Counted from the first letter of the stretch, positions 1,555 to 59,067 are shown. The stretch is 64,000 bases of DNA from a virus (IMGVR_UViG_3300033069_001798:64001-128000); one strand, 5' to 3'. The notes: a model not told the origin generated them from the letters alone. Translations and numbers: made by a program.

Positions 1555-2329
1555 TAATTGGTCAATGAGATACCGGTATATATTTCCCGCAATTATTCCC
1601 TTAACTTGGCTAATACGAAGATCGTATTTCTTGGCAAGATCTTTTTGAGTATACAATCCAGTTTGATAATCACTTCTAAGATCATTTACTGTCGCTCGTA
1701 GATGATCATTTCTTTTGATTCTAGCTGCGGCTATTTTTTGTTTAACTTCAACTCTTTGTTGAACTTCTTTTTGCTTTATGGAAGCTTTCAATCTAAATTC
1801 ATCACTTCTGAAGATTTCTCGCAAGTTCTCGATTCGTTGTTTTGCTTTTTCTTCATCACTAGCCCAATTTTTCTTAAGTGATGAAGAAATACGCTGTTTG
1901 GTTTCTTCTGTTTGATGACCACGCAATTTTCTTACTTTGCTTTTCATCTTAAGTCTAAAACTAGGATCCTTCCACAATGCTTTAAATCGATCACTTATCA
2001 ATTTTTTCTGGTGTGCTGTAATACCACGCACGCCCTCGCCACCAGAAGTAAGATTTAGCAACATTACGCCACTTTTCTTAAGAGACGAGATGGTTTCAAT
2101 TTCGTGTGCGTATGAATCTTCTTCATTACTAGTGTGATAAACACACTTAAATTCAAACGCGTCTAGACCATAAGTTCGCATGTTCGCATACAAATGACTT
2201 CTACCCCCTAAATTGACCCGTAGAACCAAAATAACGATGTATTCGCCAGCGACAAGCTAGATCATTAGTTTTTCCGACATAAACTTCTGACGTAATCGTA
2301 TTTGTAATAGTGTATACAAAGAATCCCAT
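1555..2329 (-). CDS. GIY-YIG homing endonuclease, interrupted by a +1 frameshift at a G5 run (2204-2208); ends at TTA 1555-1557
   Basis: ATG 2329 gives MGFFVYTITNTITSEVYVGKTND (GIY-YIG motif), then TAG at 2201-2203. It continues in the +1 frame as RSHLYANMRTYG...LNLTSGGEG. Confidence 0.8.
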
Positions 2330-2356
2330 GATCTAACTATAGTGGCACACATACTT

Positions 2357-3682
2357 TTACAATAGATCCATACGTTTCATCGAACTCAACGTTGTTTCTT
2401 CGTATGAACATCTTTGTTGAACGACTGTTTTCAGTCTTTCATGTGACTTTTTACAATCATCAGTGCCAACATAATCGATCAGATCGCTAGCTTTATCAAC
2501 AATGTCAGAAAAATCAGGATTGCAATAAATTGGAAATGATGACAATTTAAGCAATCTTGCATATTCATTACAGTTCAATGTCAATGGAACACATCCCAAT
2601 TCTGTGCATTCTCTAGCAGCCGTTCCACCGTACGTGTCCTGATCGTACAACCCAACAGATATCTCAGCTCTGGAGGCTATGTACTTGAATTCATCTCTGT
2701 TAAGCGGGCCAGAGACAAGAGACACGTAGCCGTGACGGCCGCAGCGATCTTGCAAGCTAGAGTTAGAGATCTTCTGGCTGGGATTTCCAGCAATGACAAC
2801 GAAGTCTTGGCGACGATTGTGAAGCTTTGGCAAGATGTCAAACATGAACTTGCCGCAGTTCGTGTAGTCGCTAGACACCCCTGCTTCACCGATACGGTTC
2901 GGGACAAAGATGATCTTCTTGCCGGCTGATTGCAGCTTCTCGACCAGGTTGACATCAAACCTAAGATTGTCGAAGTTGACTGGTGATGTGATCTCTTCTC
3001 GAGAGTATCCGTCATCCCACGGTGAAGACTTTTCGAGGATCTTTTGAACAACTTCATCTCTGTAAAGCTTCCTGGCTTCAACTTCAAACTCTGCCAACGC
3101 AGATTCGCACTGCCAGAAGTTCCAATCGGCTTTCATCGCTGCTTCGCATTGACCGAGCCACAGCGACGCTTCGGCTGGAAACTTTGGACATGATGGCACA
3201 TCCACGAAGTGGGAATGCACGAAAAACTTGGGTTGGTATCCACCAACAACGTGGAACATCGCCTTGAAAGCTCTTAGATGCATTGGATCGTTGATGTAAA
3301 CTGCGTCCCACTTGGGAGCGCGGCTCAACTTCTGCATCCCGAGATTTAGACCGACAGCTAGACCCGTCCAGTCAAAATCATAACGAGTCACAAGAGCATT
3401 TCCGATGATGTTGTGCTCAAAGAACGCTAGACGATTATCACCATCTGCACCGTAACGATCCCAAAGATCTGGGTACACATCCCAGGGATCAGTTACAACT
3501 TGTCTCTTTCTGCCGTCATCACCAAGCTGCGGGATCATCACTGTGATGTGCAGCTCTGGGTTCAGCTGAAGCATCACCCTTACGCGACCCATGACCATAT
3601 TCCACCCTGAATCACATTCTAGGATAAATTTCCCATTCACATCATAATTTGACAACTGCGTCTCTATCAGGAGTCTTTTCAT
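2357..3682 (-). CDS. GT-B fold glycosyltransferase-like protein, possibly DNA-modifying
   Basis: 441 aa. C-terminal half has a GT-B-like pattern (KKIIFVPNR, IAGNP, LNRDEFKYIASRAEISVG..DTYGGTAARECTELG). Sits next to nucleotide-sugar enzymes. Confidence 0.55.
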   Translation of the reverse strand: MKRLLIETQLSNYDVNGKFILECDSGWNMVMGRVRVMLQLNPELHITVMIPQLGDDGRKRQVVTDPWDVYPDLWDRYGADGDNRLAFFEHNIIGNALVTRYDFDWTGLAVGLNLGMQKLSRAPKWDAVYINDPMHLRAFKAMFHVVGGYQPKFFVHSHFVDVPSCPKFPAEASLWLGQCEAAMKADWNFWQCESALAEFEVEARKLYRDEVVQKILEKSSPWDDGYSREEITSPVNFDNLRFDVNLVEKLQSAGKKIIFVPNRIGEAGVSSDYTNCGKFMFDILPKLHNRRQDFVVIAGNPSQKISNSSLQDRCGRHGYVSLVSGPLNRDEFKYIASRAEISVGLYDQDTYGGTAARECTELGCVPLTLNCNEYARLLKLSSFPIYCNPDFSDIVDKASDLIDYVGTDDCKKSHERLKTVVQQRCSYEETTLSSMKRMDLL

Positions 3683-3720
3683 GCATATACTCTATATTGT
3701 AAACGACATAGGTACATATA

Positions 3721-4638
3721 ATGATTCTTACAGTGACATCTAAACAAGCGAAAAACGGAAGCGTAAAGATCGTGTCTATAAAACTACGTTGCGATGCATG
3801 CAGCGCAGAATATGAAAGTAAAAGAAGATCACGTGATATCAATAGAACAACTCATTGGTGCTCTAGAAGCTGCTTCGGTGTTGGCATGCAATCAGGTGGA
3901 TTGATCAGGGTGCTAGCTGAACAGACGTGGGTATCACGTTGGGGAACTGTGCGCCCCTCACAACATCCAGATGTCGAAGCAAAACGACGTGCTACGTCTC
4001 TTAAGAAATTCGGTTCTGTTAGTCCTATGCAAGTAGAAGAACATAAAAAACTACGACGTAAAAATAATGTTGAAAAATATGGCGTTGAAAATGTGATTCA
4101 AATTGCAGCAGTAAAAACAAAGCGAATAGAAACATTCATGAAACGTTATGGCGTTAAGAGTGCTTTGGCAATACCAGAAGTATATGCTCGTGTTAACTGG
4201 CAAGAAGCTGTCCGTAAGAACCATGAATCTATGAAGCGTAATAATTCGTATCGAAAATCAAAAGCAGAAGATCGCATGCACGAACTTCTTGTTGAACTAT
4301 TTGGTGTCAATGACATCGAACGTCAACACAAACCCATAGGAACAAACTGGCCTATTGACTTCTACGTTAAATCAATTGATGTCTGGATTCAAGTTGATGG
4401 CGTCTATTGGCATGGACTAGATCGACCTCTCGAAGAACATATCAAATCTGGTTCGCCTCGATCTGAGAGCATCGTTGGAAAATGGCATGTCGATCGTGCT
4501 CAGGAACACTGGTTTGCAAAGCATAACATGAAGTTGCTGCGAATCACAGACAAAGAGTCACTAACGATGACATCAGCAGCACTTGTGTCGTTGCTCACTA
4601 TCAAGTTTGAATCAAAAGTCGTTTTTGTCCCATTATAA
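3721..4638 (+). CDS. VSR/DUF559-like PD-(D/E)xK homing endonuclease with Zn-finger N-terminus (ends TTA TAA)
   Basis: CxxC/C motifs, KYGVEN repeats, WPIDFYV..VWIQVDGVYWHG..DRAQ. AT-rich and on the opposite strand to its neighbours. Confidence 0.8.
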   Translation: MILTVTSKQAKNGSVKIVSIKLRCDACSAEYESKRRSRDINRTTHWCSRSCFGVGMQSGGLIRVLAEQTWVSRWGTVRPSQHPDVEAKRRATSLKKFGSVSPMQVEEHKKLRRKNNVEKYGVENVIQIAAVKTKRIETFMKRYGVKSALAIPEVYARVNWQEAVRKNHESMKRNNSYRKSKAEDRMHELLVELFGVNDIERQHKPIGTNWPIDFYVKSIDVWIQVDGVYWHGLDRPLEEHIKSGSPRSESIVGKWHVDRAQEHWFAKHNMKLLRITDKESLTMTSAALVSLLTIKFESKVVFVPL

Positions 4639-6476: not shown

Positions 6477-7021
6477 TATAATCCCTTGATGAATGCAAGA
6501 ACCTCTCGCATCTCACGCTCTAGATCTTCATCATCAACGTTAAGCTTCAGAAGCTTCGTCTTCGTCCATGATGCAAAAGTGAAGTACTCATCGTGAAGCT
6601 TTTGAAGAACCTCAGCGTTGATAGTTGGATCCAAGTCATCTTCAATGCCAACGTACGATGATCGATGACACAGAACGACGCGGGCGCCAATGTTAGCCCA
6701 TGCTTCGTCAACGTGGTAGAGCATCTTCATGTCAGTTTCACGGCCCAACACCTTGGAGTACGAATACTCGCAAGGATACGCGCGATCAAATATGACGCTG
6801 TGTCCCGTTTGCCGCAGCAAGTCAAGGACTCGTGGATCTGCAAATCGTAGCTGGTTCAAAAACTGATCGTTCTTTGAAACTCTTGAAGACAAGAATGAAG
6901 TGTGCTCTGACGTTGCCTTGAAGTACGGAAGCCCTGTTCGACGCGACAACTCTTGCGCAATTTGAGTTTTTCCCGTCATATCAGGTCCGACTACCATGAT
7001 TATTTTTTGCTCTGACGTCAC
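6476..7021 (-). CDS. nucleoside monophosphate (thymidylate-kinase-like) kinase
   Basis: P-loop GPDMTGKT and IFDRAYPCE. Confidence 0.75.
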   Translation of the reverse strand: MTSEQKIIMVVGPDMTGKTQIAQELSRRTGLPYFKATSEHTSFLSSRVSKNDQFLNQLRFADPRVLDLLRQTGHSVIFDRAYPCEYSYSKVLGRETDMKMLYHVDEAWANIGARVVLCHRSSYVGIEDDLDPTINAEVLQKLHDEYFTFASWTKTKLLKLNVDDEDLEREMREVLAFIKGL

Positions 7022-7829: not shown

Positions 7830-8333
7830 ATGAAGCTGCAACTAGGTGCCTTGAGACGTTTGATATCAGAAGTGCTTGAGGATGATCTTGACGAAGAAAT
7901 CAACGAATTGCGAGAAAATCCTGAGTACATGTCGTTGGAGGCTTTCATAGAGAGCAAGCTAGATGATGACAACTATGAATACAACTTCATCGATTTGCAT
8001 GCTCTAGGGCGCAACATGACGCAAGCAAAGTATGGTTCAAAGATGGAAGTCTCTGAAGCTGGTGCTAGCGATCTTGCGCACATCAAGAAAGAACTTGGCG
8101 ATCTTGGGTTCAAGTTTGTTGGCAGAAACGTGACAAAGAGCGTCAGAGGATTTAGAGCTGGAGCGCACGGCAGGAATCCGTTCGCAGGCTCGGGCGGCGG
8201 TGGAACCGGCATGGGATCTGCGTGGGGAAATCCAACTGGATTCTCTCATGGTGGTGGACCCGGTGCTGTCGGCGGTGGATACAACTGGAGCGCTGGTGAT
8301 TCCAAGAATCTGAAGATGGGCAGCAAGCGCTAA
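7830..8333 (+). CDS. putative virion (head-internal) protein with shared N-terminal MKxxxxxLRxLIxE motif and Gly-rich C-terminus
   Basis: MKLQLGALRRLISEVLE; GSGGGGTG/GGGPGAVGGG tail. Confidence 0.65.
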   Translation: MKLQLGALRRLISEVLEDDLDEEINELRENPEYMSLEAFIESKLDDDNYEYNFIDLHALGRNMTQAKYGSKMEVSEAGASDLAHIKKELGDLGFKFVGRNVTKSVRGFRAGAHGRNPFAGSGGGGTGMGSAWGNPTGFSHGGGPGAVGGGYNWSAGDSKNLKMGSKR

Positions 8334-11300
8334 TCCCAATTTTCTCATCTTGAACACCGCCGTCGACATTCCAAACTCGTTCCTCTCAACTTCAGCGCAG
8401 TACAACGTGAACGGTTGAAGCAGCTCTTTGCAACCCCACACGCTGATGCGATTTGGCTTGCCTGTCGGACCAGTTGCAAAGATCTGAACGTACTCTTTTC
8501 CGTTCTTTGTCTTGCGCTTCACACCAGTCACGGGCTTTGCACCCTTCTTGGGTGAAGTAGGAGTGACGACGAACCAGCAAACTTTTATCTCGCCGAGCTC
8601 AACATCTTCGACTGGAACTACTCCCTTCCCGTCTAGGGCATCGAGCAACCGAGGATCAATCATCGCTGTCACATCCAAAGTGCCGAACACTTCAACCATG
8701 TTCTGAGCCTTCTCGATAGAAGACCAATCAGGTTGCCCAGCGTACTTTCGAACAAGCTCAAAGAAGTTCTTCAAACCTTCAGTTGGATCGCTCTTGGGAT
8801 GTCGCTTTATCAGAGCATTATGATCTATCTCAGCTTCGAACGTTGAAACTTCACCTTTCCTCTTCTTCGTCACTGTCTCAACGTGAGATCCAACGATGAC
8901 ATCGTGCATGTGCTTGTAGCTGCTGAACAGCTTTCCTTCACCAACGATGTTCATTGAACCAAAAGCACCAATCTTGATGAGAGCTTCTAGAGCCCTCTTG
9001 TTGAACTTGCTGTGCCTCCAGTTGAATTCATCATCCCACAGCAGATCTTCAATTGCCTCGTAAGGTCTGTTTTCCATGATCTCTTCAACTGCTGAATCAC
9101 CAACACCCTTGCAGCTTGTCATCGATGGCATCAATTTCTTGCCGGGCAGCACAGTCCAACCAAGCGCAGCTTGGTTGATATCGATTGGGACGATCTGGTA
9201 GCCCAAAGCCTTCACTTCGCTGAAAGCTTTTGCTCGCTGCTCTGGGGTGTTTGACATGGACTCGAGATAAGCGCACAACCACTGCTCTTCGTAGTGCGTT
9301 AGCAACCAGGCACACCAGTACGAGTCGATTGCGTAAGCAACTGCATGGCTCTTGTTGAAACCGTAACCGCTCATGAAACAGATCGTTTCATACATCTTGC
9401 GAGCAGTTGCTTCCGGAACGCCGTTCTTCACAGCACCAGCAACGATGCTGTCTTCAAGTTCCTTCATCTTCTTCTTCGCAGCTTCACCGCCTGAGATGCT
9501 GCGCTTCATGATAGCACGTCGAACCTCGTCAGTTTCTGACAGCGGAAAGCCAGAGACTTTGTTGACAAGAGCCATGACGCCCTCTTGGAACACCAGCAAC
9601 CCACGTGTTTCTTTCAACGTAGAGTTGATGAGCGGGTGACCCCAGTCGTACGGTTCAACTTCATGCTTCAACCACAACTTGTCAACGTGAGCCGCTAGCG
9701 GACCCGGTCGATAAATGGACGTCAAAGCTGCGATATCGATGATGCTCTTTGGCCGAGCCTTCTTGAAAAGTTGCTGAGCGCCTTTTCCTGTACATTGAAA
9801 TACGCCAGCCCAACGCCCTTCGCAGTAAGTTTCGTATGCCTTCTGATCGTCAAGATCGATGACATCAGGTGACATGTTGTTTTCATACCAAGTCTTGATG
9901 TCATCGAACGTTGGTGCTGCATTTCCCTCTTTGATGAGGATCAGTTCGATCGTTCTTTCGATCAACCTCAACGTTTCAAGGCCAAGAATGTCGTACTTGA
10001 TGAAATTTCCGATCTTCTCAAGGTGTTTGAAGTTGACACCTTCTACCCAAGGACTCTGCGGTTCACCCTTGCTGGTGATCAGGGGCATCTTGTTTGGAAG
10101 ATCGTCAGCAATTAGAACACCACCTGCGTGACGTCCAAGAGAACGATTCTGCTTGAACAGAACGTTCATAGATTCGCCAACTTCAGGGTGCCGTGCAATG
10201 AAGTCTGAGAAAGCTTTGTCGTACTTCAAACCCTCATCGTACGTGAGCACGAATAGGTTCTTGTCATCACCTTCCTTCATCGTTGCGCGGCGAACAGAGT
10301 CTTCGACAGTTCTAGTCGCGGCGTTGACTTCATCGAAGGGAATGCCATAGAACTTGCTGACATCCTTCAAGAGACTCTTCACCTTGAAAGCATTGTAGTT
10401 CGAGATTGGAACGACGTTCTCGTAACCAAAGAAATTTCGCAGCTGATCAAGAACTTTATCGCGGTCAGAGACGTCGCTATCAATGTCTGGCGCACCTTGA
10501 CGATGCACGGAGAGGAATCGAGAGAAAGGTAGGTCCCACTTGATCGGATCTAGGTCGGTGATGTACAGCACGTACGCAACAAGAGATCCGGCGCCACTGC
10601 CTCGCCCAGGTCCTACCAAAACTACTTTCCGCGCCAGCTCGATGATCTTTTGGTACGAGATGAAGTAATCCGCATTCTTCATCTGCTTGATGACGCCGAG
10701 CTCTTCTTTCAAACGATCAAGATATTCATCCTTGCCATCGAGCCCACGCTTCACCATCCCATCCTTGCACAACTTCACGAGATGGTTGAATGACTTCTCA
10801 CCTGGTGGGATGAGGCGCTCAGTTGGAAACTTTTGCGATCGATCTGGTTTAACCTCACCAATGAGGTGATGCGCGATGTCATGGGTTCGCTCAATTGCAT
10901 CACAGATGATCTGATCATCGTAAAAAGACGTATCGACCTTCGACTTCAAGTACTCATCCCACATCTGAGGCGCGTTCTTTGGGTAAAGTTCGCACTTCAG
11001 CTCGTCTCGAGATTTTGGAAGTGAATTGGGATCGATCGTCTGGTAGTTCATCCAACCCAACTTCTTGTAGAGCTCACGCTCCTTCCAGACGTCTGGATTG
11101 TAGTAGTGTGCATCTCCAGTGACAACAAGTTGTTTTTGCAAACCATTTCTGGTTGCAAACTCAATGATTGCACGGTTGACAAGGTTCTGCGCCGGCAGAC
11201 GGTTGAACTGCAGCTCGAGGAAGTAATTTCCTTCACCAACCGCAGACACCATCATGTCGTACGTATTTCCGACAGCATCAACGCACTTATCAAGAAGAGC

Positions 11301-11510
11301 CTTGTCGTCAAGGAGCGACTGGTTGAGATTATCGAACGAAATTCCCTGAAGCACTTGGAATACGCTCCAAGAGGGAAACCCGCCGATGCAATTATGGACT
11401 AGCGAACCATCAGCAAAAAAACAATGTGTATCTTCAACTGTTATGTCATATACGTCAGGTGTTTCTTCGTCAATGGAAATGCTGTCAATTTCAACGAATT
11501 CAGTTGTCAT
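8331..11510 (-). CDS. dnaE: DNA polymerase III alpha, C-terminal fragment with split-intein C-part; ends at TTA 8331-8333
   Basis: MTTEFVEI...YDITVEDTHCFFADGSLVHN|CIGG (intein C plus Cys+1), GRGSGAGS, PDIDSD, GRHAGGV, KYDILGL, YGFNKSHA. The track extension past FKMRKLG is an antisense overlap with 7830..8333. Confidence 0.93.
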
Positions 11511-12459
11511 CTGCATAGCTGTCATTGATTGATTTGATGAATTCGTCAAGGTAACCTTCTTTTTTCAAGTCCGCTTCCCACAACACACAAACATTATAGC
11601 CAATTGATCTGGCATAAGCCAACTTTATCTCATCTTTTGACCATTTTTCACTTGCCTTAACTTGCCCGTACGGAAATTGAATTAGATCATCAGCGTTATA
11701 AACGCGTGGATCTGCGTGCCAGTACGTTCCATTTACTTCAATGATCAGATTGAATCTTGGTACAAAAACATCATATGCAAATTTGCCCAAAATTTTCTGT
11801 GTTTCACAATGAATATCTTTGTTTAGCAATTCAGATACAACTCGCAATTCGAGTTTCGAATTGCGAGCACGCATACTAACAAGCCCTTTAAGCCCTCTAT
11901 TTCTTGAGAGTTCACGAATTAGTTCTAGAACGTCATCAGCAGCAAGCTGTTGATAGTTCGAAAATGATCTTGAGAATGGAGACTTACTTTTTCGAAAGGC
12001 TGACGATTTAACATTTGCTTCGTCAAGAGAATATCCTTTATTGAGATAATATTCAGTATTATTTTTGGGCGTGTATGCATCCCATGCCTTTCTAATACGA
12101 TGAGTAGTCTTAGCACCTTTTGAAGATTGTTGTGAACAGATCTTTTTTATCTCTTCAAGAGAAGTTCCCTTAGGATATTTGAACTGCAACTTAACTTCTT
12201 GAGGCAATCTCAAGTAAAGTTTATTGTTATGAACTATGCCTAGTTTATGAAACAGATTTACAATTGATCGTTTTGAAAAACGAAAACGTGTAACAATATC
12301 ATTGTGATCTCTCACAATTAGATCATAAATCATAGACAAACTATAATGTAGGTCTGATGCCAGGCGCTTCAATTCAACCGTCGTCAGACCTACATGAGTT
12401 AGAGAGTCAAGAAATTCTTGACGAGCTAGTGCTTTCTTTTTAGAATCAAATTTTCTCAT
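11500..12459 (-). CDS. free-standing VSR/DUF559-like homing endonuclease between split-intein halves of dnaE
   Basis: FAYDVFV..LIIEVNGTYWHAD..DEIK..GYNVCVLWE; AT-rich. Confidence 0.88.
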   Translation of the reverse strand: MRKFDSKKKALARQEFLDSLTHVGLTTVELKRLASDLHYSLSMIYDLIVRDHNDIVTRFRFSKRSIVNLFHKLGIVHNNKLYLRLPQEVKLQFKYPKGTSLEEIKKICSQQSSKGAKTTHRIRKAWDAYTPKNNTEYYLNKGYSLDEANVKSSAFRKSKSPFSRSFSNYQQLAADDVLELIRELSRNRGLKGLVSMRARNSKLELRVVSELLNKDIHCETQKILGKFAYDVFVPRFNLIIEVNGTYWHADPRVYNADDLIQFPYGQVKASEKWSKDEIKLAYARSIGYNVCVLWEADLKKEGYLDEFIKSINDSYADDN

Positions 12460-12475
12460 AGTTGTCCACCAATAA

Positions 12476-13477
12476 CTATTGGTGGATTGACAGTATATGA
12501 TCTGTTTTCAGAAGTTCTTGTGCTTCTACCCAACCACGTTTAGTATAGACTTTGTGATCAGGCGTTACCCGCAATGTTGCACCATTTTTAAGCTTAATTC
12601 GAACAATTTTTGCTTGTTCTCTTGTTTTATCAGCCCAAGTAACTTTCTTAAAAACAAGTTGGTTTGTGTCATGATCATATGACAACACCGAAATTTCAGT
12701 GCCATTTTTTACATGTTCAACTAGATTAACAATCTTCATTGAACCACAATTGGTGATCACAATTGAATCTGGATGAATGCATGCAGAAGTGACAACGATG
12801 TTACGATCTTTTCCTGCTTCCTTCAGCATCTCCAAGTCGATGCGAGGGAATCTGTAAAAACCCTGCATGTACGCTTTCGAGCACGCAGAGAAAATGGACA
12901 GCAAGCCCTGCTGGTTCTTTGGCAGAACAACAAGGTGATGACGACGGTTGACGGGATTGAAGTGCTTCGTTGACTTTGACTCGTCTTCATTTTCAACTGT
13001 CAGAGCATTGGTCATCTCGATGTCTTCGGTTTCATCCGCTTCATCGACGACAGCAATGATCTTTGTCTGCAGCTTTTCCTGCTCCTTCAGGAGCTTCGCT
13101 GCTGCTTTCTTATCGACCAGGGCTTCTTCAGCACGAAGCTTGTCAACTTCCCACTGCTTCAAGCTTGGGTGAAAGTACATTTCACAACCCGGAATGTACT
13201 TGAAAGGAAGTTTTGGGTTTGCTTTATTCCAATCTTCAACTGCGAGTTGAGCATGAGCGTAACTGTTCATGTTACCGTGCTCAGTAATTGCGTGAGCATC
13301 AAGACCATTCTCACGACAAAAATCGAAATGTTCGTTCGGGTATCCGAGGCCGTCAAAGGGTGATTAAATCCCCTACGAAAACCCTGTGTGATTATGCAAA
13401 CCAACAAATCGCTTCGGAGTGCGCACAGAGTTTTCTAGGGATACCTCCTTTCTGTTGTTTGAATCGTTAATTTTCAT
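12476..13477 (-). CDS. dnaE: DNA polymerase III alpha, N-terminal (PHP) fragment plus split-intein N-part, interrupted by a 15-nt in-frame gap at 13361-13375
   Basis: ATG 13477 (or GTG 13426) gives RTPKRFVGLHNHTGFS-[TAG GGG ATT TAA TCA]-PFDGLGYP..AITEHGNMNS..PGCEMY..HLVVL..TSA|CIHPDS..TPDHKV (intein N). Confidence 0.88.
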
Positions 13478-15130: not shown

Positions 15131-16059
15131 TTAAGAATTTCTTTCGCTATAGTAATATCTGGTTTTCTCTGAAGTGGATCATCAATAGGTATGGACTGCC
15201 ATACAAATTTTGATTTGCTACTTGGAATCAAAGACATAACAACATCTGCAAGTTCTTTAATGGTAAACTCATTTGGATTTCCCAAATTAATGGGCGTTTT
15301 TGGATTGTAGCTCAAGGCTCCCAAAGAAACAATTCCACGTATCAGATCATCTACGTAACAAAATGACCTTGTTTGAGAACCATCACCATAGATTGTGATA
15401 TCTTTGTTGTACAAGGCTTGAGTTATAAAGTTTGAAACTACACGTCCGTCTGTTACATCAAGATGAGGGCCATACGTGTTGAATATTCTAACGAGACGTA
15501 CGTCTACGCCGTACTTGAAAAGAGAATCGTAGCACAACGCTTCTGCTGCGCGCTTGCCTTCATCGTAGCATGCTCGGGGACCGTAAGGGTTCACGCAACC
15601 CCTATAAGATTCAACTTGAGGAGTGATATCCGGATCGCCGTACACTTCAGACGTTGAGGCGTGCACAACTACAGAATTGTTACACATAGCAACGTCGATG
15701 ATGTTGTTAGTTCCGGCCACGCATGTCATCATCGTCTTCGTTGGAATCTGTTGGTATCGAGGCGGTGAAGCAGGGCAAGCGAAGTTATAGATCAGATCAA
15801 TTCCCGCTGGTGACTTTTTCATTGCGTGCTTCTGCAAGCAGTAATGAACCTGCTTCTGCTCTGCAATGTCGCACTCATAGACTTCCCCCAACTTCTTCTC
15901 TGCCATGAGGCGCTTGATCGTAGCAAGATGAAGAGAATCTCTCTTCGACGAAGAGAAATCATCCAGACCGATCACCTCATCACCGGCTGCGATGTGATGC
16001 AACGCAAGATGCGAACCAAGAAAACCAGCGATACCCGTGATCAGAACTTTCTTCGACAT
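15049..16059 (-). CDS. UDP-glucuronate decarboxylase (UDP-xylose synthase)-like SDR
   Basis: GIAGFLGSH, ACPASP, STSEVYGDP, CYDEGKR, RIFNTYGP, DDPLQRKPDI. Confidence 0.9.
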   Translation of the reverse strand: MSKKVLITGIAGFLGSHLALHHIAAGDEVIGLDDFSSSKRDSLHLATIKRLMAEKKLGEVYECDIAEQKQVHYCLQKHAMKKSPAGIDLIYNFACPASPPRYQQIPTKTMMTCVAGTNNIIDVAMCNNSVVVHASTSEVYGDPDITPQVESYRGCVNPYGPRACYDEGKRAAEALCYDSLFKYGVDVRLVRIFNTYGPHLDVTDGRVVSNFITQALYNKDITIYGDGSQTRSFCYVDDLIRGIVSLGALSYNPKTPINLGNPNEFTIKELADVVMSLIPSSKSKFVWQSIPIDDPLQRKPDITIAKEILKWQPSVQLLEGLQKTIHYIQNVNVQFT

Positions 16060-16066
16060 TGCTGCT

Positions 16067-16095
16067 ATCGTACTACACTAAGCCCTCATCTACAC
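16067..16095 (-). promoter_or_regulatory. sigma70-like promoter, likely leaderless transcript
   Basis: GTGTAG-N17-TACGAT, with the -10 box 7 nt before ATG 16059. Confidence 0.45.
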
Positions 16096-16420
16096 TTGTT
16101 CTGATCCAAGAGTTATAGTACGCTTCTACGAGCGCTGCTGAACACTTGTTGATTTTGTCTCTGTGCTGGTGTGCAGTGTCTGTGAACCAAAAGTTCAGAA
16201 CGCTGAGCACGATGCTGCTAGCCAGCTCGCCGATCGAGTCTTTTTCAGCCAGGTGAAACCCAGCTTCTGAAAATCTTGCAAGGATAGACAGAGCCTCAGA
16301 CTGGTATTCGTCTGCGCTAACTTCGTTCAGACACATCGGATTATGCTCGCACAATATCTGGTTGAACTCTTCTAGAAGCTTTACCCTCAAGAAATTCTGC
16401 TGTTGGCTCATGAGGTGCAT
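16073..16420 (-). CDS. hypothetical protein
   Basis: 115-aa ORF. Confidence 0.55.
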   Translation of the reverse strand: MHLMSQQQNFLRVKLLEEFNQILCEHNPMCLNEVSADEYQSEALSILARFSEAGFHLAEKDSIGELASSIVLSVLNFWFTDTAHQHRDKINKCSAALVEAYYNSWIRTSVDEGLV

Positions 16421-16462
16421 ACTATATCACTTGTTGCTTCAGATTTTCACATACTTAGTAAC

Positions 16463-16897
16463 ATGCTTAAGACCAACATCTTTGAATCAGCGAACAAGAT
16501 CTTGACAGAGCGCTTCGGTGAACCGTTGAGCATGGAAGAAACGCGGGTTCGAATCTCTCCTCAAGAAGTCATCACAACGTGGGAAGACTTGTACAGAGAA
16601 GAAGGAATCGTATCACTCGAGGCACTTGCGAGCTGGCTGGCAACAACCGAAGAAGCTGTCGTTGCAGCGCTGCCGAGCTACTTGATTGTCAATGATGAGG
16701 GTGACGTTGTCGAAAACAACGTTGCAGAAGCAAAGAAGCGCGGGCCTTCGAAAGCCGCTGCAAAATCGTGGGTCAAGGGCACCAAGAAGTTCAAAGACAA
16801 GGTGAAGAAAGCAAAGAGTGCTGGCATGGAAAATCCTGAAGGATTCGCAGCTTGGATGACTCATAAAGCAACGGGTGCCTGGCCGAGCGCTAAATGA
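16463..16897 (+). CDS. hypothetical putative virion protein (start revised to ATG 16463)
   Basis: ATACTTA motif at 16451-16457, 5 nt before the ATG; basic C-terminal segment. Confidence 0.6.
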   Translation: MLKTNIFESANKILTERFGEPLSMEETRVRISPQEVITTWEDLYREEGIVSLEALASWLATTEEAVVAALPSYLIVNDEGDVVENNVAEAKKRGPSKAAAKSWVKGTKKFKDKVKKAKSAGMENPEGFAAWMTHKATGAWPSAK

Positions 16898-16971
16898 ACA
16901 AAAGAGGCAGCATAAAACTACCTCTTTTATTAGAAGATTAAATCTGTGGGCCTTGGTGGGCCCTTAAGTGG

Positions 16972-17625
16972 TAAAGAAACCCTCGTTACCGTGTATCCGT
17001 TACCGTGGAATCCGCCACCAGTGTGCCACGACTCACCAGGCTTTAGATTTATGATTTGCTTCTGCTCGGCCTCGTCGTCATCCATGACTTCAATGTTATC
17101 GTACCAGAAACGATTGTTGATGACTACTGGCCTTGGCTTAAGATGACCGTCATCAAACGACTCTTCGTATTTGGCACCCGGAGGTGGGTTAGGACCCCAG
17201 CGGCGTTTCGCATCGTAGGAACCGTTGCCGTCACGACGGTTAACCCAAAAATTTTCTGGCGTTGGGTACGGACCAGGATCAGCGCCCGTACGACCGTACT
17301 CACTTTCTTTTTCTGTAGCTTCAGTCACTGGACCATTCATCATAGCGCTGTACACGGCATCGACAACTGCTTGAGCCATGTCTTCACGTGACATTCCAGT
17401 TCCAATCGACCACTTCTGCCAGCCCGGGTTGTCGTAAAAGAAACCATCAGCCGCAGCTTCAGCAGCCTCGACTGGATCAACTTCTGGTGTCTCACGAGTA
17501 AAGTTCTTCCAGTCGTTTGCGTAAGCAGCGAGAGCTGCGTCAAACTCAGCGGCGTCATCCTGACCAGCAACAGTCTCAAGAACTTCCTTGATCACGTTCC
17601 GGAGAGTCGAAATTTTCATCTTCAT
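16972..17625 (-). CDS. putative virion protein with shared N-terminal motif; ends at TTA 16972-16974
   Basis: MKMKISTLRNVIKEVLE. TTA is followed by a GGGCC-N6-GGCCC hairpin, and ATACTTA lies upstream at 17644-17650. Confidence 0.65.
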
Positions 17626-17630
17626 TGGTT

Positions 17631-18044
17631 TAACTTCCAAGTGTAAGTATCTCTACCACGATTCAAATTCTTCGAAGGAACTGATGCAACAAGCTTCGTT
17701 TCTTCGATCCTCTTCTTTGTTTCTGTTATCTTAAAACCGTCTGTCTTGTAGGCGTTGATACCAAACATAGCAAACATCTGGTTGGACAATGCATGCTGGA
17801 CGAGCTCAACCCTTGTTTCTTCATTGCTGATCACGTAGCGTTTGAAGACCACAGAATCACAATCTGGTTTGTACTCGAACGGTTCAGAACCCAACGTCAC
17901 GAGCCATGTTTTTCTCGTGATAGGGCGACCTTTCTTTATAGATTGTGGTGGAACGTCCACCGTATACTTTAGCGTGATATACACTTTGCCGAAGTGAGGA
18001 TCTTTAGTGCACCAACATGTCAATGCTTCCGAGCTCTTTGGCAT
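17631..18044 (-). CDS. hypothetical protein; ends at TTA 17631-17633
   Basis: SD GGAGG before ATG 18044. Confidence 0.55.
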
Positions 18045-18154
18045 GCGCCTCCACTTAGTGATCAAGTACGGTCGTCGAGAATGACAGACTACTTTTAGAT
18101 GGAAAGACTTAGCAGCTGCAAATTCAAGCGGAGACAGGCTTCGTTGAACTTTTT

Positions 18155-18709
18155 TCAACCTAAAGAGCACCTTTGCTTCAGCAAGTAGCAATTTCCTTCG
18201 TGCTGATCTTCTATGCCAGCGATCAAGTTGTCTAGACCTCGAGTCAACGTTCCAGACTCTTTCATGAGCTCGACAAGTTTTGCGACGACGGCAAGAAAAT
18301 TATACTCTGCCATCAACGACCTTCGTGCTAGGTCAGATTCAGTTGGAATCATCTGTGACATGCCGTAATTCTGAACTAGCTTGTTCAACTGCATCGTCTG
18401 AAGCGCAACGTCGACATTTGCAGTCGTGCCCAGCCCAATAGCTTTCTCAGCTACTGAATCAATCTCTGGTGTTACTGAGTTGTAGAGGCGCTCAAACAGC
18501 AAGTGATCACCGTAGAATGGATCACCCTTCGCAGTCCAGTGATGCGTCTGGTGTAGCAGAGCAAGATGCCTCAAGTGAACTAGCATGACTGAAAGTTCAG
18601 GGTACGTTACAGATCCCCACTCAGCACACATGTTCTCTGTGACAAACCCTGCGTTGTTATCAGCAAGGACAATCTGAACTTCTAGAGTTTCTACTAGGCG
18701 TCGCTTCAT
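18155..18709 (-). CDS. dps: Dps/ferritin-like DNA-protection protein
   Basis: HQTHHWTAKGDPFYGDHLLFERLY...IDSVAEK (Dps ferroxidase signature). Confidence 0.8.
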   Translation of the reverse strand: MKRRLVETLEVQIVLADNNAGFVTENMCAEWGSVTYPELSVMLVHLRHLALLHQTHHWTAKGDPFYGDHLLFERLYNSVTPEIDSVAEKAIGLGTTANVDVALQTMQLNKLVQNYGMSQMIPTESDLARRSLMAEYNFLAVVAKLVELMKESGTLTRGLDNLIAGIEDQHEGNCYLLKQRCSLG

Positions 18710-20094: not shown

Positions 20095-20106
20095 ATAGCG
20101 TAAGTA

Positions 20107-43522: not shown

Positions 43523-44404
43523 TAATGTCTCCATCAGCTCGTTGAATGCATCGTCAAGCGTTTGCTTCTTCTTTGGTGCATCATCATCATCGTCAGACGA
43601 TGCTGCCTTTTTCTTGTTCTGCTTCTTTGGTTCTTCTGCCGGCGCAGAAGCAGGTTGTGCCTTCGCCGCAGTTGCAACTTCATTTACAAGTGCATCGAGC
43701 GCATCATTAGCAGGAGCACCCTTCTCGGTGCCGTCTTCTGACGCAGCGACGTCGCTGTTCAACCAATCGTTCAAGACCTTCTCGATCTCTTCCTTCGATT
43801 TCTGACGATACATGTCATCTAGGTTTGGCGTTGACGCCAGCAACTTCTCGATCTGTGCAGGATCTTCCATCAACTTCGACGGCCTGCGAGCAGCATCAAC
43901 GGTCGTATCTGGGTACTGCTTTCCGGGCGTCTGAGTGATAGTCACCTTCAGGTCAAAACCAACGAGGGGATCAAGAAAATCTCCCACCTCTTCGTCAGAG
44001 AAAAATCCAAGCAAGCGATTGTAGATTCCCTTGCCAATGCTCCAAACCTGGACGCCTTTGTCTTCCTGACCCCTGACAACGACAGCAACGTACGCTCTCA
44101 TCTTCGGATGAAGCTGCTTTGCCATCGCACGATCTTCTGGTTTCCCAGAAGAATACAGCTTCCTGATGAGGTCATCGATCGGATCCGGCTTACCGAACTG
44201 CTTCGGCGAAAGGATTCCTTGTGCATTTCCGATGTAGTAGAACCACCTCTCGAGGAAAGGTAGGTCATCTGTCGAGTTCTTCCAAGGAACTGCACGAATT
44301 TTATACTCGCCCGGCGTTGGCTTCCAAAGTTGAACAGAAGACGTCTTCTTCTGCCCGTTAAGTTCTGCCATGCGCTTACGAATTGCTTCTAGATTTATCG
44401 CCAT
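43523..44404 (-). CDS. T4 gp32-like single-stranded DNA-binding protein; ends at TTA 43523-43525
   Basis: LWKP..GEYKIR..P, CP replaced by DPIDD, GFDLKV, acidic tail LDDAFNELM. Confidence 0.8.
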
Positions 44405-44517
44405 GTTTATTTCCTCATTCCTTACGAGCAATTGTGTACTGCTCAAACCGCAGAATGCGATTAATGTTACAGTACACTCCCATGCTGGGGAAGTTCAAAA
44501 TCCTCAGATCACTTCAG

Positions 44518-44784: not shown

Positions 44785-44976
44785 TAAAGCAGTGTTCTCT
44801 GGTGCGCTGTACAAGTGCAGTTCTCCTTTCTTCACGGCCCACGCCACTGCTTTCTTGTCGCCAGAAAATGCTATAGCCATTGCTGCGTACATGTGCAGCT
44901 CGATGTTAGAAACAACGTGCACTTGAAAATTACCAGCGCAGATCGATCCTTTCGTAAGATCAGAGATGTAATTCAC
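44785..44976 (-). CDS. small hypothetical protein; ends at TTA 44785-44787
   Basis: Short ORF coupled to the HD gene end. Confidence 0.4.
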
Positions 44977-53600: not shown

Positions 53601-56600
53601 TAATTTAGCCGTAGCAGGGAAGGCGTAGACACCAGACGGGCTGTTTGGTAGGACGTCGGTAGACTCCTTACCAGCAGTTCCTGGACCGGTTGCAAAGTTC
53701 AATCGATTGCGGATGACAGACTTCTCTCTGAGAACAAGAGACTTCTCAAGGTCAGCAGCGTTCATCTCAACTTGCAGATTGACATTGATGATGACGTCCT
53801 TGCTCTTCACTTGGTAGTTGAACTTTCCGCCGATTCCCAACCCAGACGCAAGCGTCTTCAACTTGGCGTTCAGCTTTAGGTCTGGAAGCGAGCCCATTGC
53901 ATCGTTCAATGAATTAGCTTTCTCAACCAAATTGCTGATAGCAAGAAGCGCTTGCTTGATGCCACCATTCATTATCATTTCGGCTGAAGATGTCATCGTA
54001 GTACCAGCTTCATTTGAAACAGTTGCAAGACTAGAAAGTTGTGCAGCAGAAGATTCAACAAATTTTGCTTGCGCAGCTGACATTGATTGAATCGCAGAAT
54101 TCATCTTTCCGATGATTTCATTTTCAATCGCTGAAGTAAGTTTTTCTATCTTTGAAACCGTGGATCTTAGTTGATCAACAGAAGTTGACGCTGCGGATAC
54201 ATCAGGCAATTTTGCAGACGTTGCAGCGGCTTGCTTAGATGATGTTGCTTGAGCAGAAATTGACTCAGATTTGCTTTTAGCAATTTTTGCTGCATCGCCC
54301 ATCTTTTTTTCCATTGATTTTGGAAGATCGTCAATGCCATTATTGAATCCAGCTACGATATCATCGCCAATGTCTTCAAACACTTTCGAAGGTGAGCTGA
54401 TCTTAAATGCTTTCTTAGCAACGGCAATCAGATCTTTGAAAACACCGATATCAAGCAATTTATTCAGTGCGTTAGAAATTCCTTCGACGACCGCACCGAA
54501 CAGCTCACCAATTTTAGACATACTAAAGATATCGACTATGATATCCCATGCCTTTTGAAAAGCAGACCCAATGACATCTTTAACGGTTCCAAATGCAGAT
54601 TTAACAGGATCGATTACGTTCGAACTAAACCAATTTGAAACTGTGTTCCAAACCATCTTTACTAGTTCCCAAGTATTTGCAAATTCAGTAGTGATTGAAT
54701 TTGCAATCTTTGAAAACAAATTGCCGAGCGGGATGATGACTTCATTCATCATCCAATCTGGCAAGGCATCCCAAACTTCCAATATAAATTCGTACGCACC
54801 AACGATCAAATTCTTAGTTTCTTCTATTTGGCCCATAATAGCGCCAACTACAAAAGTAACGATCTTCCCAATATTCTTAAATGCCAACTGCACCAAGTAT
54901 ACAGCACCCTTTAGCAGCAAAAAGACCGGGATTGTGTGCAATACAACTTTCATGATAGACATCATTGTATCACGATGACTTCTGAACAAGTATTGCAATG
55001 TCTTCAAAACAGCAACAATCGGTAGCCAAAGTGGCGCCGTCGCACGACCAAAAACGTAAAGCAATGCCTTACCAACCGACATCAAAATAGAACCCAAAGG
55101 AGCTAGCGCCTCTAGCCAGGCTTGTATGCTAGCTACTACTCCACTCTCTTTGAAGTACGCTGATATATCACCAAACAAGTCTGATATCTTACCCATAACG
55201 TTACTCAACAACGTAAAATACTCAGATATCAACCAAAATACCGGGCCTACGATTGGAATATCTTCGCCTTTCTTAAACAAATCAGCTAGAACACCCCAGA
55301 ACATAGAAAGCAGCTTTGTTCCGAATTGAAATGCCATCACATACAACGTTGGAATCTGCTCAACCATCCACAAGAACCAGTTGCCAACGAAACTCAACAA
55401 TTTGCCACCAAGATCTTGAAGCGCGCCGGATATATCGCCCTCTTTTCCTTTGAAGATCTCAGAGATCAAGTTACCGAAGCTGCCAAAGACATCAAGCGCA
55501 GAACCAATATATGCCTTCAACCTTCCAGTGAAAGAAGCACCAAAAACATCTTGAATTGCACCAAATATCATCTCTGACATTGACGCAAATTGTTCAGCAA
55601 CAATTTCTTGAATTGAGTCTGGCAGCAATCCGAACGTAAAAGCATTAATAATACCAGCCGCAGCTGCACCCATCTTTGCTTCAGTTCTACCGAACGTTGG
55701 TGCAAGCTTGTCTTCAAACTTCTTCATTGCATCGTTAACATTGACAGCAAGATCACCGATAGCAACTGCGATTGCTGCAGGTCCCAAGAATTTGCCAAGT
55801 CCGCCAAAAATTTTCCTAAATAGACCTCCAAACCCTCGAGTTCCAGCTCTTTCTGCAGCACCAGCTGCAGGTCCCAAGAATGCTCCTTTAATTGCGTTAG
55901 CTATCAATGAACCAACGCTAGAAGTCATAATTCCCAACAGTGATCTGACTATGGCAGGACCAAACAAGATTCCAAACACGTATGGCAATGCCGGCTTCAC
56001 AAGATTGATAAAGTCGTCAGACGTGAAGTACTCAAACAGTTTTTCACCAACTACCTTAACCAAGTCAAAAATTGCTGGTTTTAGAATATTCCACGAATCT
56101 CTAAGAGAATCAATCAGAGGTTGAATCATCTCGAACGCAGCAGCAGCACCGTCTCCACCTGCTTCCTTGACTGCATCTTTTGCAGATTTTGGATCAAGAA
56201 TCAATTTTGTGATGCTTTTCAAAACTTCAGCAATTTTTGTTGAAGCCCATCTTATGCCATCCGCAATCACATTGATGATGATCTTAAAGATCTTTCGAAA
56301 TCCCTTGATGGTTTTCTGTCCAGCGGGTGTCTGATCATTGAAGAAATCAAAGAAATGCTTCTGGATGTTCTCCATCAGTTTTGGGAATGAATGTTCACCG
56401 TGCGTTGCATCTTCAAAGAATGCAACGATTTCTTCGCCAAAAGCATTAAACAGCTTAGAAAATTTTCCTGGTTTGAAAAATTCAGCAAGACCGCCCAAGA
56501 ACTCTTGGATCGGCGTAAGCTGGGCGAACAATTTACCAGCTTTCACACCTGCCATCTCGACAAGTTGCAAACCTCGTCGGATATTCATAATAGTATCTCT

Positions 56601-58238
56601 GAACTCCTTCGAGGCTTGGATTCCTCCCAAGAACCCTCTGAAGAAACGCTCAAAGTAACCACCAGAACCCTGACCACCTGCCTGAACTAGTCTCTCAATC
56701 GAGTCAGCAAGAGCCTTCATGGCTTCTGCCTGGCTCATCTGCTTCTTCTCAGCGCCTTCGCTCTTCTTCTTGATGTCATCAAGAGAAGCGCCTTGGTTCT
56801 TCAAAGAAAAAACTTGACGTGCAGTTGCTTCATCAAGACCGGTCGTTGAAGCAAGAAGCTTCATCTGCTGACGATTGAAAGAAGATGCATCCTGACCAGC
56901 GGCAGCAAACTGCTTGCGCAGCATGTCAATCTGCGTTGCTGGATCTTGAGCTTCCATCAGCTTAAAAGCATCGACGTTCAAACCGAACGATTGCGACAGC
57001 TTTGCTGCGTTCTCAGCAGCTGAGTCAAAAGTATCAAACGCATCTAGCGTGCCAGTGATCTTGTCAAGCTCTAGGCCCAACTTCCTAGCGTATACAGACG
57101 CCGTCGCGATCTCTTTGACAGTTGCGCCAGCAAAGTGCTTCACGTCAGCGAAGGCTTTTGCCATGTCCCTAGAGATCAACTTTGAATCAATCTGGAATGC
57201 TTTGCCAAGACCCTGAGCTTGCTTCTGAACCTCGTACAGCTGCTTCGCCATGTTGGTTCCGAGAGATTTTGCTCTCTCGCTCATGGTCCTCATCATCTCA
57301 CCAGATAGACCAAGACCCTTCTGCCAGGCGAGCAGAGCACCACCATTCTCCTTGAATTCATCAGCAAAGTTCTGGAAGTTTGGTCCCATCTCCTGAGCCA
57401 ACTTCAAAAATTCTTCTAGTCGATGTGCCAGGTTACCAAAGATCCTGTATGCAGATAGGCCAGTATCTGAGAATCCCTTCAACTGGATGGACATGTCCAT
57501 GATCACCTTTGGTGATCCAGTTCCCAAAGCTCCAAATTCTTTTCTGAGGTTTTCGATAGCTTGTGCTAGCTCAGTTGATCCAGCGCCAGCATTATTTGCG
57601 ATATCGATCAATCCCTTGAACATCTTGAACGGGATTGCAAGGATCGCACCACCAATGTTAAACAACGCAGACGTCAAACCTTCAAGCATTCCAAGTGAAG
57701 CTTTACCGACAGCGATGACATTTTCAATGCCTTGTGCAAAACCCGACGCAGCCGCTGATGCAACCAGCATGCCTTCAGGAAACTTCTTTGACACAGTTAT
57801 GCCAAGCTTGCCAAGTTGCTTGTTCAAGACACCTGCGGCGCCACCCGGTTCTGACAATGCCTCATGAAGCTTATCAAGGGGTGTCTTATTCATTCCTTCT
57901 ATGAGCTTCGTCGACTCTTTGATTCGACCGCTAAGCGACGTCACTGACGTTCCAGCATCACCAGCCTTCTTCGCCATCTCTTCAAACGTTTGTTGGTTGA
58001 TGTTCTTGGCCTTGGATAGGCTTTCAGCCATCTGCTTCAGATCTTTGTTGATCTTTCCTATCTCGCCGATGACGTTCTTAACATCAACTTGGCCCATCGT
58101 AGTAGCCAACTGCTTCATTGACTCTACTTGCGTAGCGTAAGCCGCGTCAATCTTCGCAGACGACACCGCCATGCGATCCATCAAAGCAGCTAGCTTTGTC
58201 GCAATATCAACCTGGTCTTTATCTACTGGGCCCGCCAC
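53601..58238 (-). CDS. tape measure protein; ends at TTA 53601-53603
   Basis: 1545 aa, Ala/Gly-rich and helical, with W/F-rich repeats and C-terminal FKISSPSKVF. Confidence 0.85.
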
Positions 58239-58353
58239 TTAGACCTCAACCTACAAGTAGGTTTCTTATTTCGTTATCAGTCATGTTCTTTACCAGTTGT
58301 TTCGGAAGTGATTTGCGACGCGAAGTTTCAAAAGTGATAAAAGTAGCATAAAA

Positions 58354-59067
58354 TAACAACGGGAACGGAATGTTAAATTGCTTCTCGAACTCTTGAGCAG
58401 TCATGTGTTTCACGCTAAGTTTGTTCATGACAGATTCAACCGTTGCACCTGGGTGCTTCAGCTCATCCTGAAACTTCTTTGACGCTAGCAACGCGTTGGC
58501 CACGGTTTGGACTTGCTCATTAGTACCGCGAAGTTTGACGTTGACAGCTTTACCCACCAACCACGCTCCAACCGTAGCAAAGAAGATCTTACCGAGCAAA
58601 TTTGTCTTCAATTCGTTGATAACTTTTGACTCAGACATCTTCTCTTTTCCTTTAACGTTCTTCTCTATGTATGCAGCTGCTCGATTAAGGATACCAACAT
58701 CTCTGCTGTTACCGTCTGATACAAACAGTTCTTGCGCTTCATCAAGAGTGCAGCATCTCACTTCTTCCATCTCATAATCATGAGCACCGACCGGACCGGT
58801 TCTGACCATCATGAAGTAGTGCGTGATGCTGTACGACCCAACACCAGTTCCAAGCGAACCGTTCGGAAGCATCTTGGCTGGAACGCCTGCCTCTTCTTGA
58901 ACTTCGCGGAGCGCAGTTTCTTCTAGACCTTCGCCAGCATCAACTCTTCCTTTTGGAAAAGTCCACGGACCGTAATTGTTAGACGGCTTGCAAACGTACA
59001 CTCGATACGGTTCTTCAAGCGAATCTAGAACAACACCGCCTGCAGACGTCCACTTCTCGTTCGGCAT
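58354..59067 (-). CDS. NUDIX hydrolase fused to a small phage-conserved domain; ends at TTA 58354-58356
   Basis: Nudix box GRVDAGEGLEETALREVQEEAG; C-domain ends EFEKQFNIPFPL. Confidence 0.8.

Follow-up and report, generated by a model that had tools for sequence, protein, structure and literature searches.

TTA as a probable fourth termination codon in a lineage of uncultivated T4-like giant phages

The codon TTA very probably acts as a termination signal in a lineage of uncultivated T4-like giant phages with genomes of roughly 314 kb. We analysed bases 64,001–128,000 (hereafter the window; 64,000 bases) of the IMG/VR virus record IMGVR_UViG_3300033069_001798 (140,366 bp, GC content 47%, CheckV completeness 42%; hereafter G000), which belongs to this lineage. 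An initial annotation of the window had proposed that TTA behaves as a fourth stop beside TAA, TAG and TGA, and this proposal is supported by the sequence-level tests described here. Comparison with relatives demonstrated that TTA has been purged from reading frames and that it stands at, and swaps with, the standard stops of related phages. It is also probable that UUA, as a fourth terminator, would be read by a release factor in infected cells that contain no tRNA-Leu(UAA). With somewhat less confidence, we favour the more specific explanation that UUA is a true, release-factor-read stop in a four-stop code, either of a wastewater or freshwater bacterium or of the phage acting on it.

TTA within and at the ends of genes

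Gene calling that accepted TTA as a further terminator yielded 72 window genes of at least 60 amino acids, with 20,055 codons between them. They end at TGA (30), TTA (20), TAA (15) or TAG (7), so that all three standard stops are still in use, as had been stated initially. On the whole of G000, 205 genes end at TGA (99), TTA (57, or 28%), TAA (32) or TAG (17). None of the 1,709 leucine codons of the window genes is TTA, and TTG is the most used leucine codon (536). Out of frame, these gene bodies contain TTA 280 times in one of the remaining frames and 202 times in the other (482 in all). The initial annotation, which had found no internal TTA in approximately 20 genes and 10,000 codons, was therefore conservative, as the statement holds for the full gene set. 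The 16 AT-richest genes of the window (GC 35–44%, mostly encoding endonucleases) contain 332 leucine codons, again without a single TTA. These genes favour A-ending codons (AAA 247 versus AAG 113; AGA 75 versus AGG 8), and TCA is the commonest serine codon in the AT-rich genes of the window. Because such genes prefer AAA, AGA and TCA yet lack TTA, the avoidance is codon-specific and not an effect of base composition. Relatives of similar GC content (43–48%) use 9–16 TTA per 1,000 codons.

A similar picture was obtained from stop-to-stop frames defined by genetic code table 11. Over the whole of G000, TTA is the rarest codon in these frames (82 of 38,095), and nearly all of its occurrences either precede the start codon or belong to the final codons of the frame. 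In window frames of at least 100 codons, TTA is located close to either end, within a few codons of the beginning and ahead of the start codon or within a few codons of the end (for example, codons 1545 of 1556, 209 of 212, 289 of 290 and 385 of 386), and a few frames run on past the expected protein end at TTA, such as those of DnaE (codon 1077 of 1175) and ribonucleotide reductase (RNR; 874 of 1132). Table 11 otherwise yields long open frames with a coding density of 94%, and TAA, TAG and TGA end genes where the orthologs end. No suppressor tRNA is present among the 39 tRNAs of the lineage, and the genome thus does not resemble those of phages in which TAG or TGA has been recoded as sense.

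The positions of the TTA ends were compared with those of orthologs in four relatives taken as standard-code phages. TTA is an ordinary codon in G002 (GC 35%, 30 TTA per 1,000 codons), G003 (GC 50%) and G007 (340 kb, 99% complete, GC 59%); for G008 (GC 59%), with 3 interior TTA in 26,407 codons, the standard code was assumed only. Among 35 TTA-ended genes with a usable ortholog, the C-terminal difference is at most one residue in 18, at most three in 27 and at most ten in 34, with a median of 0. By the same measure, 56 standard-ended genes gave 28, 41 and 50, respectively, also with a median of 0. The ends at TTA thus coincide with ortholog ends, a comparison that the initial annotation had called for. 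In the window, an ortholog ends within three residues for 15 of the 16 testable TTA ends, including those of DnaE, RNR, dUTPase, DUF7873, metallophosphatase, HD and NUDIX genes. A TAA, TAG or TGA of the relatives was aligned with TTA in 20, 7, 13 and 12 ortholog pairs. Ends of Pfam profiles likewise coincide with TTA: DUF7873 is matched over positions 1–242 of 244, and the dUTPase profile ends (129 of 129) at residue 96, at the TTA at 40566. TTA does not appear to be merely an unassigned or rare codon, since it ends 57 of the 205 genes and is aligned with the stops of relatives.

We also translated 225 kb of the lineage through TTA and aligned the products to the four relatives. Only 10 aligned TTA cells were obtained, compared with 1,031–2,338 for every other leucine codon. 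An alignment end is at most four positions away from nine of these cells, and none of the 10 falls at a conserved internal leucine, the kind of position at which, according to the initial annotation, an aligned TTA would refute its proposal. The sole internal cell, which is discussed below, is aligned to Phe/Tyr. Two other contigs, L432 and L433, which are low in TTA and carry tRNAs, were considered as carriers of the trait and rejected as standard-code, because their TTA codons align to Leu, Ile or Met within conserved proteins.

It is very unlikely that TTA is still a leucine codon, only a very rare one, and that the C-terminal tails and gene fusions are real. All frames are open under table 11, and automatic gene callers gave products of this kind. 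However, this explanation accounts neither for the complete lack of TTA among the leucine codons of the window at a GC content of 45% nor for the 27 of 35 TTA ends at ortholog stops, and it needs tails of 1–258 unrelated residues, including an RNR fused with the two next genes.

The sequence behind TTA resembles that behind any stop, because the next in-frame standard stop follows TTA at a median of 10 codons, compared with 10–13 codons after TAA, TAG and TGA. Overlapping stop-start TTATG sequences are present at 7 of 57 TTA ends in G000 and at 7 of 37 in G004, a contig from another sample. The corresponding TGATG overlaps number 13 of 99 and 6 of 45 TGA ends, respectively, with a chance expectation of 1 in 16. 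The lack of backup-stop enrichment after TTA and the comparable frequencies of TTATG and TGATG both fit efficient termination. Genes ending in TTA were found in every module inspected, including the tail sheath gene, a tape-measure-like gene, DnaE and RNR. In a 12-kb array of mini-genes, 4 of the 49 open reading frames (ORFs) called on the plus strand end at TTA.

These features bear on the possibility that UUA is unassigned, with neither a tRNA nor a release factor, and that stalled ribosomes are freed by rescue through transfer-messenger RNA (tmRNA), ArfB/PrfH-type factors or peptidyl-tRNA drop-off. tRNA-Leu(UAA) is indeed missing from the phage set described below, and relatives have tmRNA and PrfH-like factors. 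However, more than a quarter of the genes (28%) end at TTA, among them the tail sheath, tape-measure-like, DnaE and RNR genes, and neither the unenriched backup stops nor the frequency of TTATG fits this possibility, which we consider quite unlikely. In trans-translation, stalling and tagging are slow and mark proteins for degradation, and the unassigned codons of Micrococcus and Mycoplasma are avoided and do not serve to end genes.

The trait was seen in at least five independent assemblies. G004 shows 97% nucleotide identity to G000; 37 of its 103 genes end in TTA, and all nine TTA ends compared in the shared region are conserved. G014 has TTA at the ends of 9 of its 39 genes, and in L035 TGA and TTA have been exchanged in both directions. 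A 313,755-bp contig (JGI 3300014059 Ga0119868_1000001; hereafter the 314-kb relative) was reached via a protein at the end of G004 (97% protein identity); 41 of the 114 genes in 85 kb of this contig end in TTA, and all 15 testable ends lie within three residues of ortholog ends. The TTA patterns of these independent assemblies agree with one another. In addition, 20 kb of the window are represented, at 95–99% identity, by contigs from four runs, of which one was a metatranscriptome. It is extremely improbable that TAA is the true codon and that the pattern arose from errors in sequencing or assembly, from base modification or from RNA editing. The pattern is tied to the coding strand, whichever DNA strand that is, and is the same in assemblies from different samples and studies, and an artefact could not strip TTA from gene interiors. 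A weaker point in the same direction is that, among the differences listed for the RNA-library contigs (95–99% identical), none is on a TTA site.

tRNA genes and release factors

In the explanation that we favour, infected cells would contain no active tRNA-Leu(UAA), and UUA in the ribosomal A site would be read by a class-I release factor relaxed at the second codon base. This factor would most likely be a host RF2-type protein, as in organelles with a UUA stop. The phage may have lost a tRNA-Leu(UAA) gene that G007 has kept in the same array, and may then have adapted to, or drifted into, the code.

The 314-kb relative was walked in 10-kb steps, and G000 was extended past its left end through other assemblies, so that approximately 300 of 314 kb were covered. 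No tRNA gene was found on G000 or G004. Six-frame Pfam searches for RF-1 and PCRF on G000, for RF-1 on G004 and for PCRF on four smaller contigs with the trait were all negative. The 314-kb relative carries 39 tRNA genes in two clusters, which are syntenic with those of G007. Its leucine tRNAs are Leu-GAG, Leu-CAG, Leu-CAA and Leu-UAG, which together decode all leucine codons but UUA. tRNA-Leu(UAA), the presence or absence of which the initial annotation had proposed to check, is not among the 39 tRNAs in the approximately 300 kb covered. In the syntenic array of the standard-code phage G007, Leu-UAA lies between Gly-UCC and Thr-UGU.

The exact slot of tRNA-Gly(UCC) and tRNA-Leu(UAA) in G007 is occupied in the 314-kb relative by a 109-nt spacer with a T-arm-like sequence, GGTTCGAATCC, located between tRNA-Gly(GCC) and tRNA-Thr(UGU) (L486, 10879–10987). 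Its resemblance to a tRNA is confined to the T arm, and neither ARAGORN nor Rfam called it as a tRNA. The spacer may be a decayed tRNA gene, although we do not claim it as a remnant. Elsewhere in the 314-kb relative (L487, 2209–2301), a tRNA of 93 nt that has the anticodon UAU, discriminator A and a long variable arm is in the slot of an odd tRNA of G007 that was called with a four-base anticodon. This tRNA raised the possibility that ATA is read as leucine, which was rejected because ATA aligns to isoleucine, like ATT and ATC.

The standard-code relatives encode a release-factor homolog of approximately 200 amino acids with the GGQ motif and an RF1-type PPT or PPN motif but without domain 1. 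This short factor is present in G007 (L110, 1453–2076) and in 16 relatives (alignment A1), and its gene is located within the tRNA array, just after tRNA-Met and adjoining a NADAR gene. In the TTA lineage, the slot holds an unrelated protein of 194 amino acids, which begins like a signal peptide and matches no family. None of the genes called on the walked stretches (approximately 300 of 314 kb) has a release-factor domain, and the divergent release factor for which the initial annotation had suggested a search was thus not found in this part of the lineage's genome. Scanning viral and metagenome contigs with the short factor of G007 and the 16-factor alignment gave no match on any contig with the trait. 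The lack of a release-factor domain on the walked stretches implies that either a host factor or a phage protein outside the known families would carry out termination at UUA. Several candidates were examined and rejected. G009 and G010 were considered as carriers of the trait with a release factor, and both use TTA as a sense codon. A hidden Markov model of the short factors detected on G000 only an antisense ORF (19.8 bits) without a Pfam match, which was treated as spurious. No relatives were found for a G007 gene that adjoins the tRNA array.

These results also bear on a code imposed by the phage itself, in which host tRNA-Leu(UAA) would be removed or inactivated and an unrecognised factor of the phage would release at UUA, so that UUA-containing messages of the host and of competitors are truncated and those of the phage are immune. 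Such a strategy would be in keeping with the up to 59 tRNAs, the tmRNA and the short RF1-type factor carried by relatives, with the retention of 39 tRNAs yet not Leu-UAA, and with PNKP, RlaP and an Rnl1-type ligase, which bring tRNA cleavage and repair into the biology of the phage. Furthermore, the RecA tree places the trait in two clades, (G000, L030, L031) and (L032, L035), with standard-code phages branching in between, although backbone support is moderate. However, no release-factor-like gene is present in the approximately 300 kb covered, the slot of the short factor holds the unrelated protein described above, and no anticodon nuclease was identified. Moreover, because TTA ends occur in every module inspected, the earliest phage proteins would be extended if the factor were synthesised only after infection. 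We therefore consider a phage-imposed code unlikely.

Several points weigh against release-factor-mediated termination at UUA, the explanation that we prefer. We infer termination from sequence, and low-level read-through at TTA may occur. Approximately 15 kb of the 314-kb genome lie outside the coverage for tRNA genes and release factors. Nine further anticodons of G007 are likewise missing from the tRNA set of the lineage, and at least one standard-code phage (G009) has no tRNA-Leu(UAA) either; the loss of this tRNA is therefore necessary for reading UUA as a stop, but it is neither specific nor proof. Finally, a single internal in-frame TTA was found in the lineage, in a GT1 glycosyltransferase gene of the 314-kb relative (L482, 7781–7783). 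As the codon is TTC (Phe) in four other assemblies of this gene, it represents an assembly error or else a variant of the nonsense type.

TTA-ended genes of the window and their surroundings

Nearly all genes of the window are on the minus strand, so that the plus strand shows TAA at the coordinates given in the initial annotation, and the genes themselves have TTA there. All 18 of these coordinates correspond to an in-frame TTA of a gene, 17 on the minus strand and one, at 4633, on the plus strand. Further TTA gene ends were found at 6479, 16079 and 18161. The reported doublets of TTA with TAA or TGA at 4633, 18709 and 22894 are all present. In the following, codons are on the minus strand unless otherwise stated, and offsets are the C-terminal residue differences between the TTA-defined end and the ortholog end.

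The DnaE polymerase core (1,072 amino acids) ends at TTA 8331–8333, with offsets of 0 to G002 and G007, both ending in TGA; read-through would add 98 residues. The same three bases form, on the plus strand, the TAA that ends a convergent ORF (7830–8333), and this triplet would stop translation on both strands. The RNR gene (868 amino acids) ends at TTA 33760–33762, and a second in-frame TTA is located at 33754–33756. Its orthologs in G008, G002, G007 and G003 show offsets of 0, +1, 0 and +1, respectively, all with TGA, and read-through would add 258 residues. Of the two genes behind it, the first (127 amino acids, 33346–33729; TTA 33346–33348) is a separate gene in G002, with a TAA end 2 residues off, and the second (113 amino acids, 32992–33333; TTA 32992–32994) is the third gene of a 1,126-amino acid 'fusion' under table 11, with a standard stop 1 codon later. 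The C-terminal piece of dUTPase (97 amino acids) ends at TTA 40566–40568 with ortholog offsets of 0, −1 and −2 (TGA), the NUDIX gene (254 amino acids) at TTA 58354–58356 with an offset of 0 to G008 (TGA) and a read-through of +36 residues, and the DUF7873 gene (243 amino acids) at TTA 26353–26355 with offsets of 0 to G002 (TAA) and G003 (TGA) and a read-through of +48 residues.

In three genes, a standard stop directly follows TTA. These are a plus-strand gene for a DUF7487 endonuclease-like protein (304 amino acids, 3721–4635; TTA 4633–4635, followed by TAA), the G003 ortholog of which ends 1 residue off; a 375-amino acid gene (18709–19836; TTA 18709–18711) with ortholog offsets of 0, 0 and +2 (TGA); and the metallophosphatase gene (282 amino acids; TTA 22894–22896) with offsets of 0, 0, 0 and −4 (TGA). 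A 180-amino acid gene (6479–7021; TTA 6479–6481) shows offsets of 0, +1 and −1 to G008, G007 and G002, which end in TGA, TGA and TAA, respectively. For a 201-amino acid gene (18161–18766; TTA 18161–18163), the ortholog offsets are 0, −2, −2 and −6, all with TGA. The offsets are +4, −3 and −6 (TGA) for an 82-amino acid gene (30861–31109; TTA 30861–30863), −1 and −5 (TGA) for a 307-amino acid gene designated SSB in the initial annotation (43523–44446; TTA 43523–43525), and +3, +2, −4 and −1 for the HD-domain gene (206 amino acids; TTA 44969–44971), with TAA, TAG, TGA and TGA in the orthologs.

The tape-measure-like gene (1,545 amino acids) ends at TTA 53601–53603, the sole in-frame TTA in 1,556 codons, 11 codons before the standard stop; alignments to homologs stop short of its C-terminus. 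Orthologs are less informative for the remaining ends. A 212-amino acid ORF (1555–2193; TTA 1555–1557) has no usable ortholog, and its next standard stop is 5 codons on. TTA 16079–16081, codon 115 in a stop-to-stop frame of 117 codons, ends a 113-amino acid ORF (16079–16420) without an ortholog. A 222-amino acid ORF (16972–17640; TTA 16972–16974), in the frame of which TTA occupies codons 226 and 237 of 240, has an uninformative partial homolog. A 186-amino acid ORF (17631–18191) ends at TTA 17631–17633, codon 222 of a 225-codon frame, and a 117-amino acid ORF (21814–22167) with a weak partial homolog ends at TTA 21814–21816, codon 118 of a 121-codon frame.

According to Pfam, the window encodes, in addition to other proteins, DnaE (in pieces), ribonucleotide reductase, dUTPase, RecA, a DnaB-like helicase, a 5′–3′ exonuclease and a family-A polymerase, together with PNKP, RlaP, DUF7873, NUDIX and HD proteins, sugar epimerases, a T4-type baseplate protein and several homing endonucleases. 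DnaE is split into three ORFs, located at 12476–13270 (PHP domain and the N-part of an intein), 11500–12459 (no family match) and 8331–11549 (the C-part of an intein and the polymerase core). The C-terminal half of dUTPase, with an intein C-part (40566–40859), adjoins a gene for a TnsA-like endonuclease (40837–41772), and the DnaB-like helicase gene (36427–37668) adjoins a NUMOD3 endonuclease gene (37646–38830). These 'fractured' genes (8331–13270 and 36427–41772) resemble split inteins with free-standing homing endonucleases. Contigs from other runs join position 29579 to 30766 and lack the 391-amino acid gene with TnsA-like and dUTPase_2 domains; because it is absent in other strains, this gene represents a mobile endonuclease insertion. 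In two runs, about 210 different bases are present instead of 27923–28831. An RNA-repair gene set at 22894–28105 encodes metallophosphatase, PNKP, DUF7873 and RlaP, and the 314-kb relative carries an Rnl1-type RNA ligase gene (L485, 7831–9063) beside its tRNA array. The presence of these RNA-repair genes suggests that the phage faces tRNA cleavage by its host.

By word matches, the phage occurs in wastewater, river and sludge material from at least 12 studies. In a wastewater metatranscriptome library, phage contigs corresponding to window positions 16000–35999 reach a word depth near 1,000, compared with 4–9 in DNA runs, which may reflect an active bloom or carried-over DNA. A near-identity search with 12 kb of the genome gave no match among cultured phages. 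Because the best protein match to any cultured phage is only 39% (Microcystis phage Mel-JY01), no host can be inferred from such matches. A vault-protein homolog of the phage, used as a host probe, matched metagenome-assembled genomes of Sericytochromatia, Polyangiaceae and Planctomycetota at approximately 50% identity, and the TTA pattern is absent from all moderate-GC genomes among these matches. A search for an arrangement of DUF481 with the vault protein was negative.

Relation to known codes and significance

Reassignment of UUA from sense to stop is known from organelles. In labyrinthulean (Thraustochytrium) mitochondria (NCBI table 23), UUA is a stop and the SPF motif of mtRF2a carries a serine substitution (PMC12574857). 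The codon and the direction of change are the same as those proposed here, and UUA likewise occurs only at gene ends beside standard stops; however, table 23 concerns an organelle with a few dozen genes, whereas the present case concerns a bacterial phage of approximately 314 kb. In the plastids of peDinoflagellates, UUA and UCA are stops and the plastid RF2 is modified, a change described as the first sense-to-stop case beyond mitochondria (PMC12574857). There, too, the codons are confined to homolog-defined 3′ ends, in over a third of genes. The phage differs in that UUA alone is affected (TCA is common), in that RNA editing is not involved, and in being bacterial/viral and not organellar. 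The mitochondria of two green-algal lineages, Marsupiomonadales and Pseudoscourfieldia, in which UUA and UUG are stops and mtRF1a is altered (PMC12574857), share the change from leucine to stop; in the phage, however, UUG is the top leucine codon and tRNA-Leu(CAA) is carried.

Phages that recode TAG to Gln or TGA to Trp do so with phage suppressor tRNAs (bioRxiv 10.1101/2021.08.26.457843). They resemble the present lineage in being phages that depart from table 11 with involvement of their own tRNA set. However, they gain a sense codon and a tRNA, whereas the TTA lineage would lose both and gain a terminator. In cellular bacteria, AGA and AUA in Micrococcus luteus and CGG in Mycoplasma capricolum are unassigned, and TTA is rare and bldA-dependent in Streptomyces. 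Avoidance of a codon where its tRNA is missing or scarce is common to these cases and to the phage. The bacterial codons go with extreme base composition and do not serve to end genes, whereas in the phage, with a GC content of 45–47%, 28% of genes end at TTA.

A full-text literature search found no report of a UUA stop in bacteria or phages, only in organelles, in agreement with the initial annotation, which knew of no such sense-to-stop case in phages or bacteria. The largest screen of genetic codes in prokaryotic genomes cannot, by its own statement, detect new stop codons (PMC8629427, PMC9825746). Because stop codons are not modelled, current code screens are blind to sense-to-stop changes.

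If UUA is indeed a stop in this lineage, it would be the first sense-to-stop reassignment outside organelles, and such changes would not be confined to tiny organelle genomes. Standard pipelines would then give approximately a quarter of the proteins of the lineage wrong C-termini or false fusions, such as a DnaE extended by 98 residues and an RNR joined to the two next genes. Sister phages differ both in the change and in the possession of tRNA-Leu(UAA) and would offer a direct test of codon capture by a release factor, and the frequent occurrence of the phage in wastewater should make it possible to find its host. A code of this kind would, in addition, constitute a natural barrier to gene exchange.

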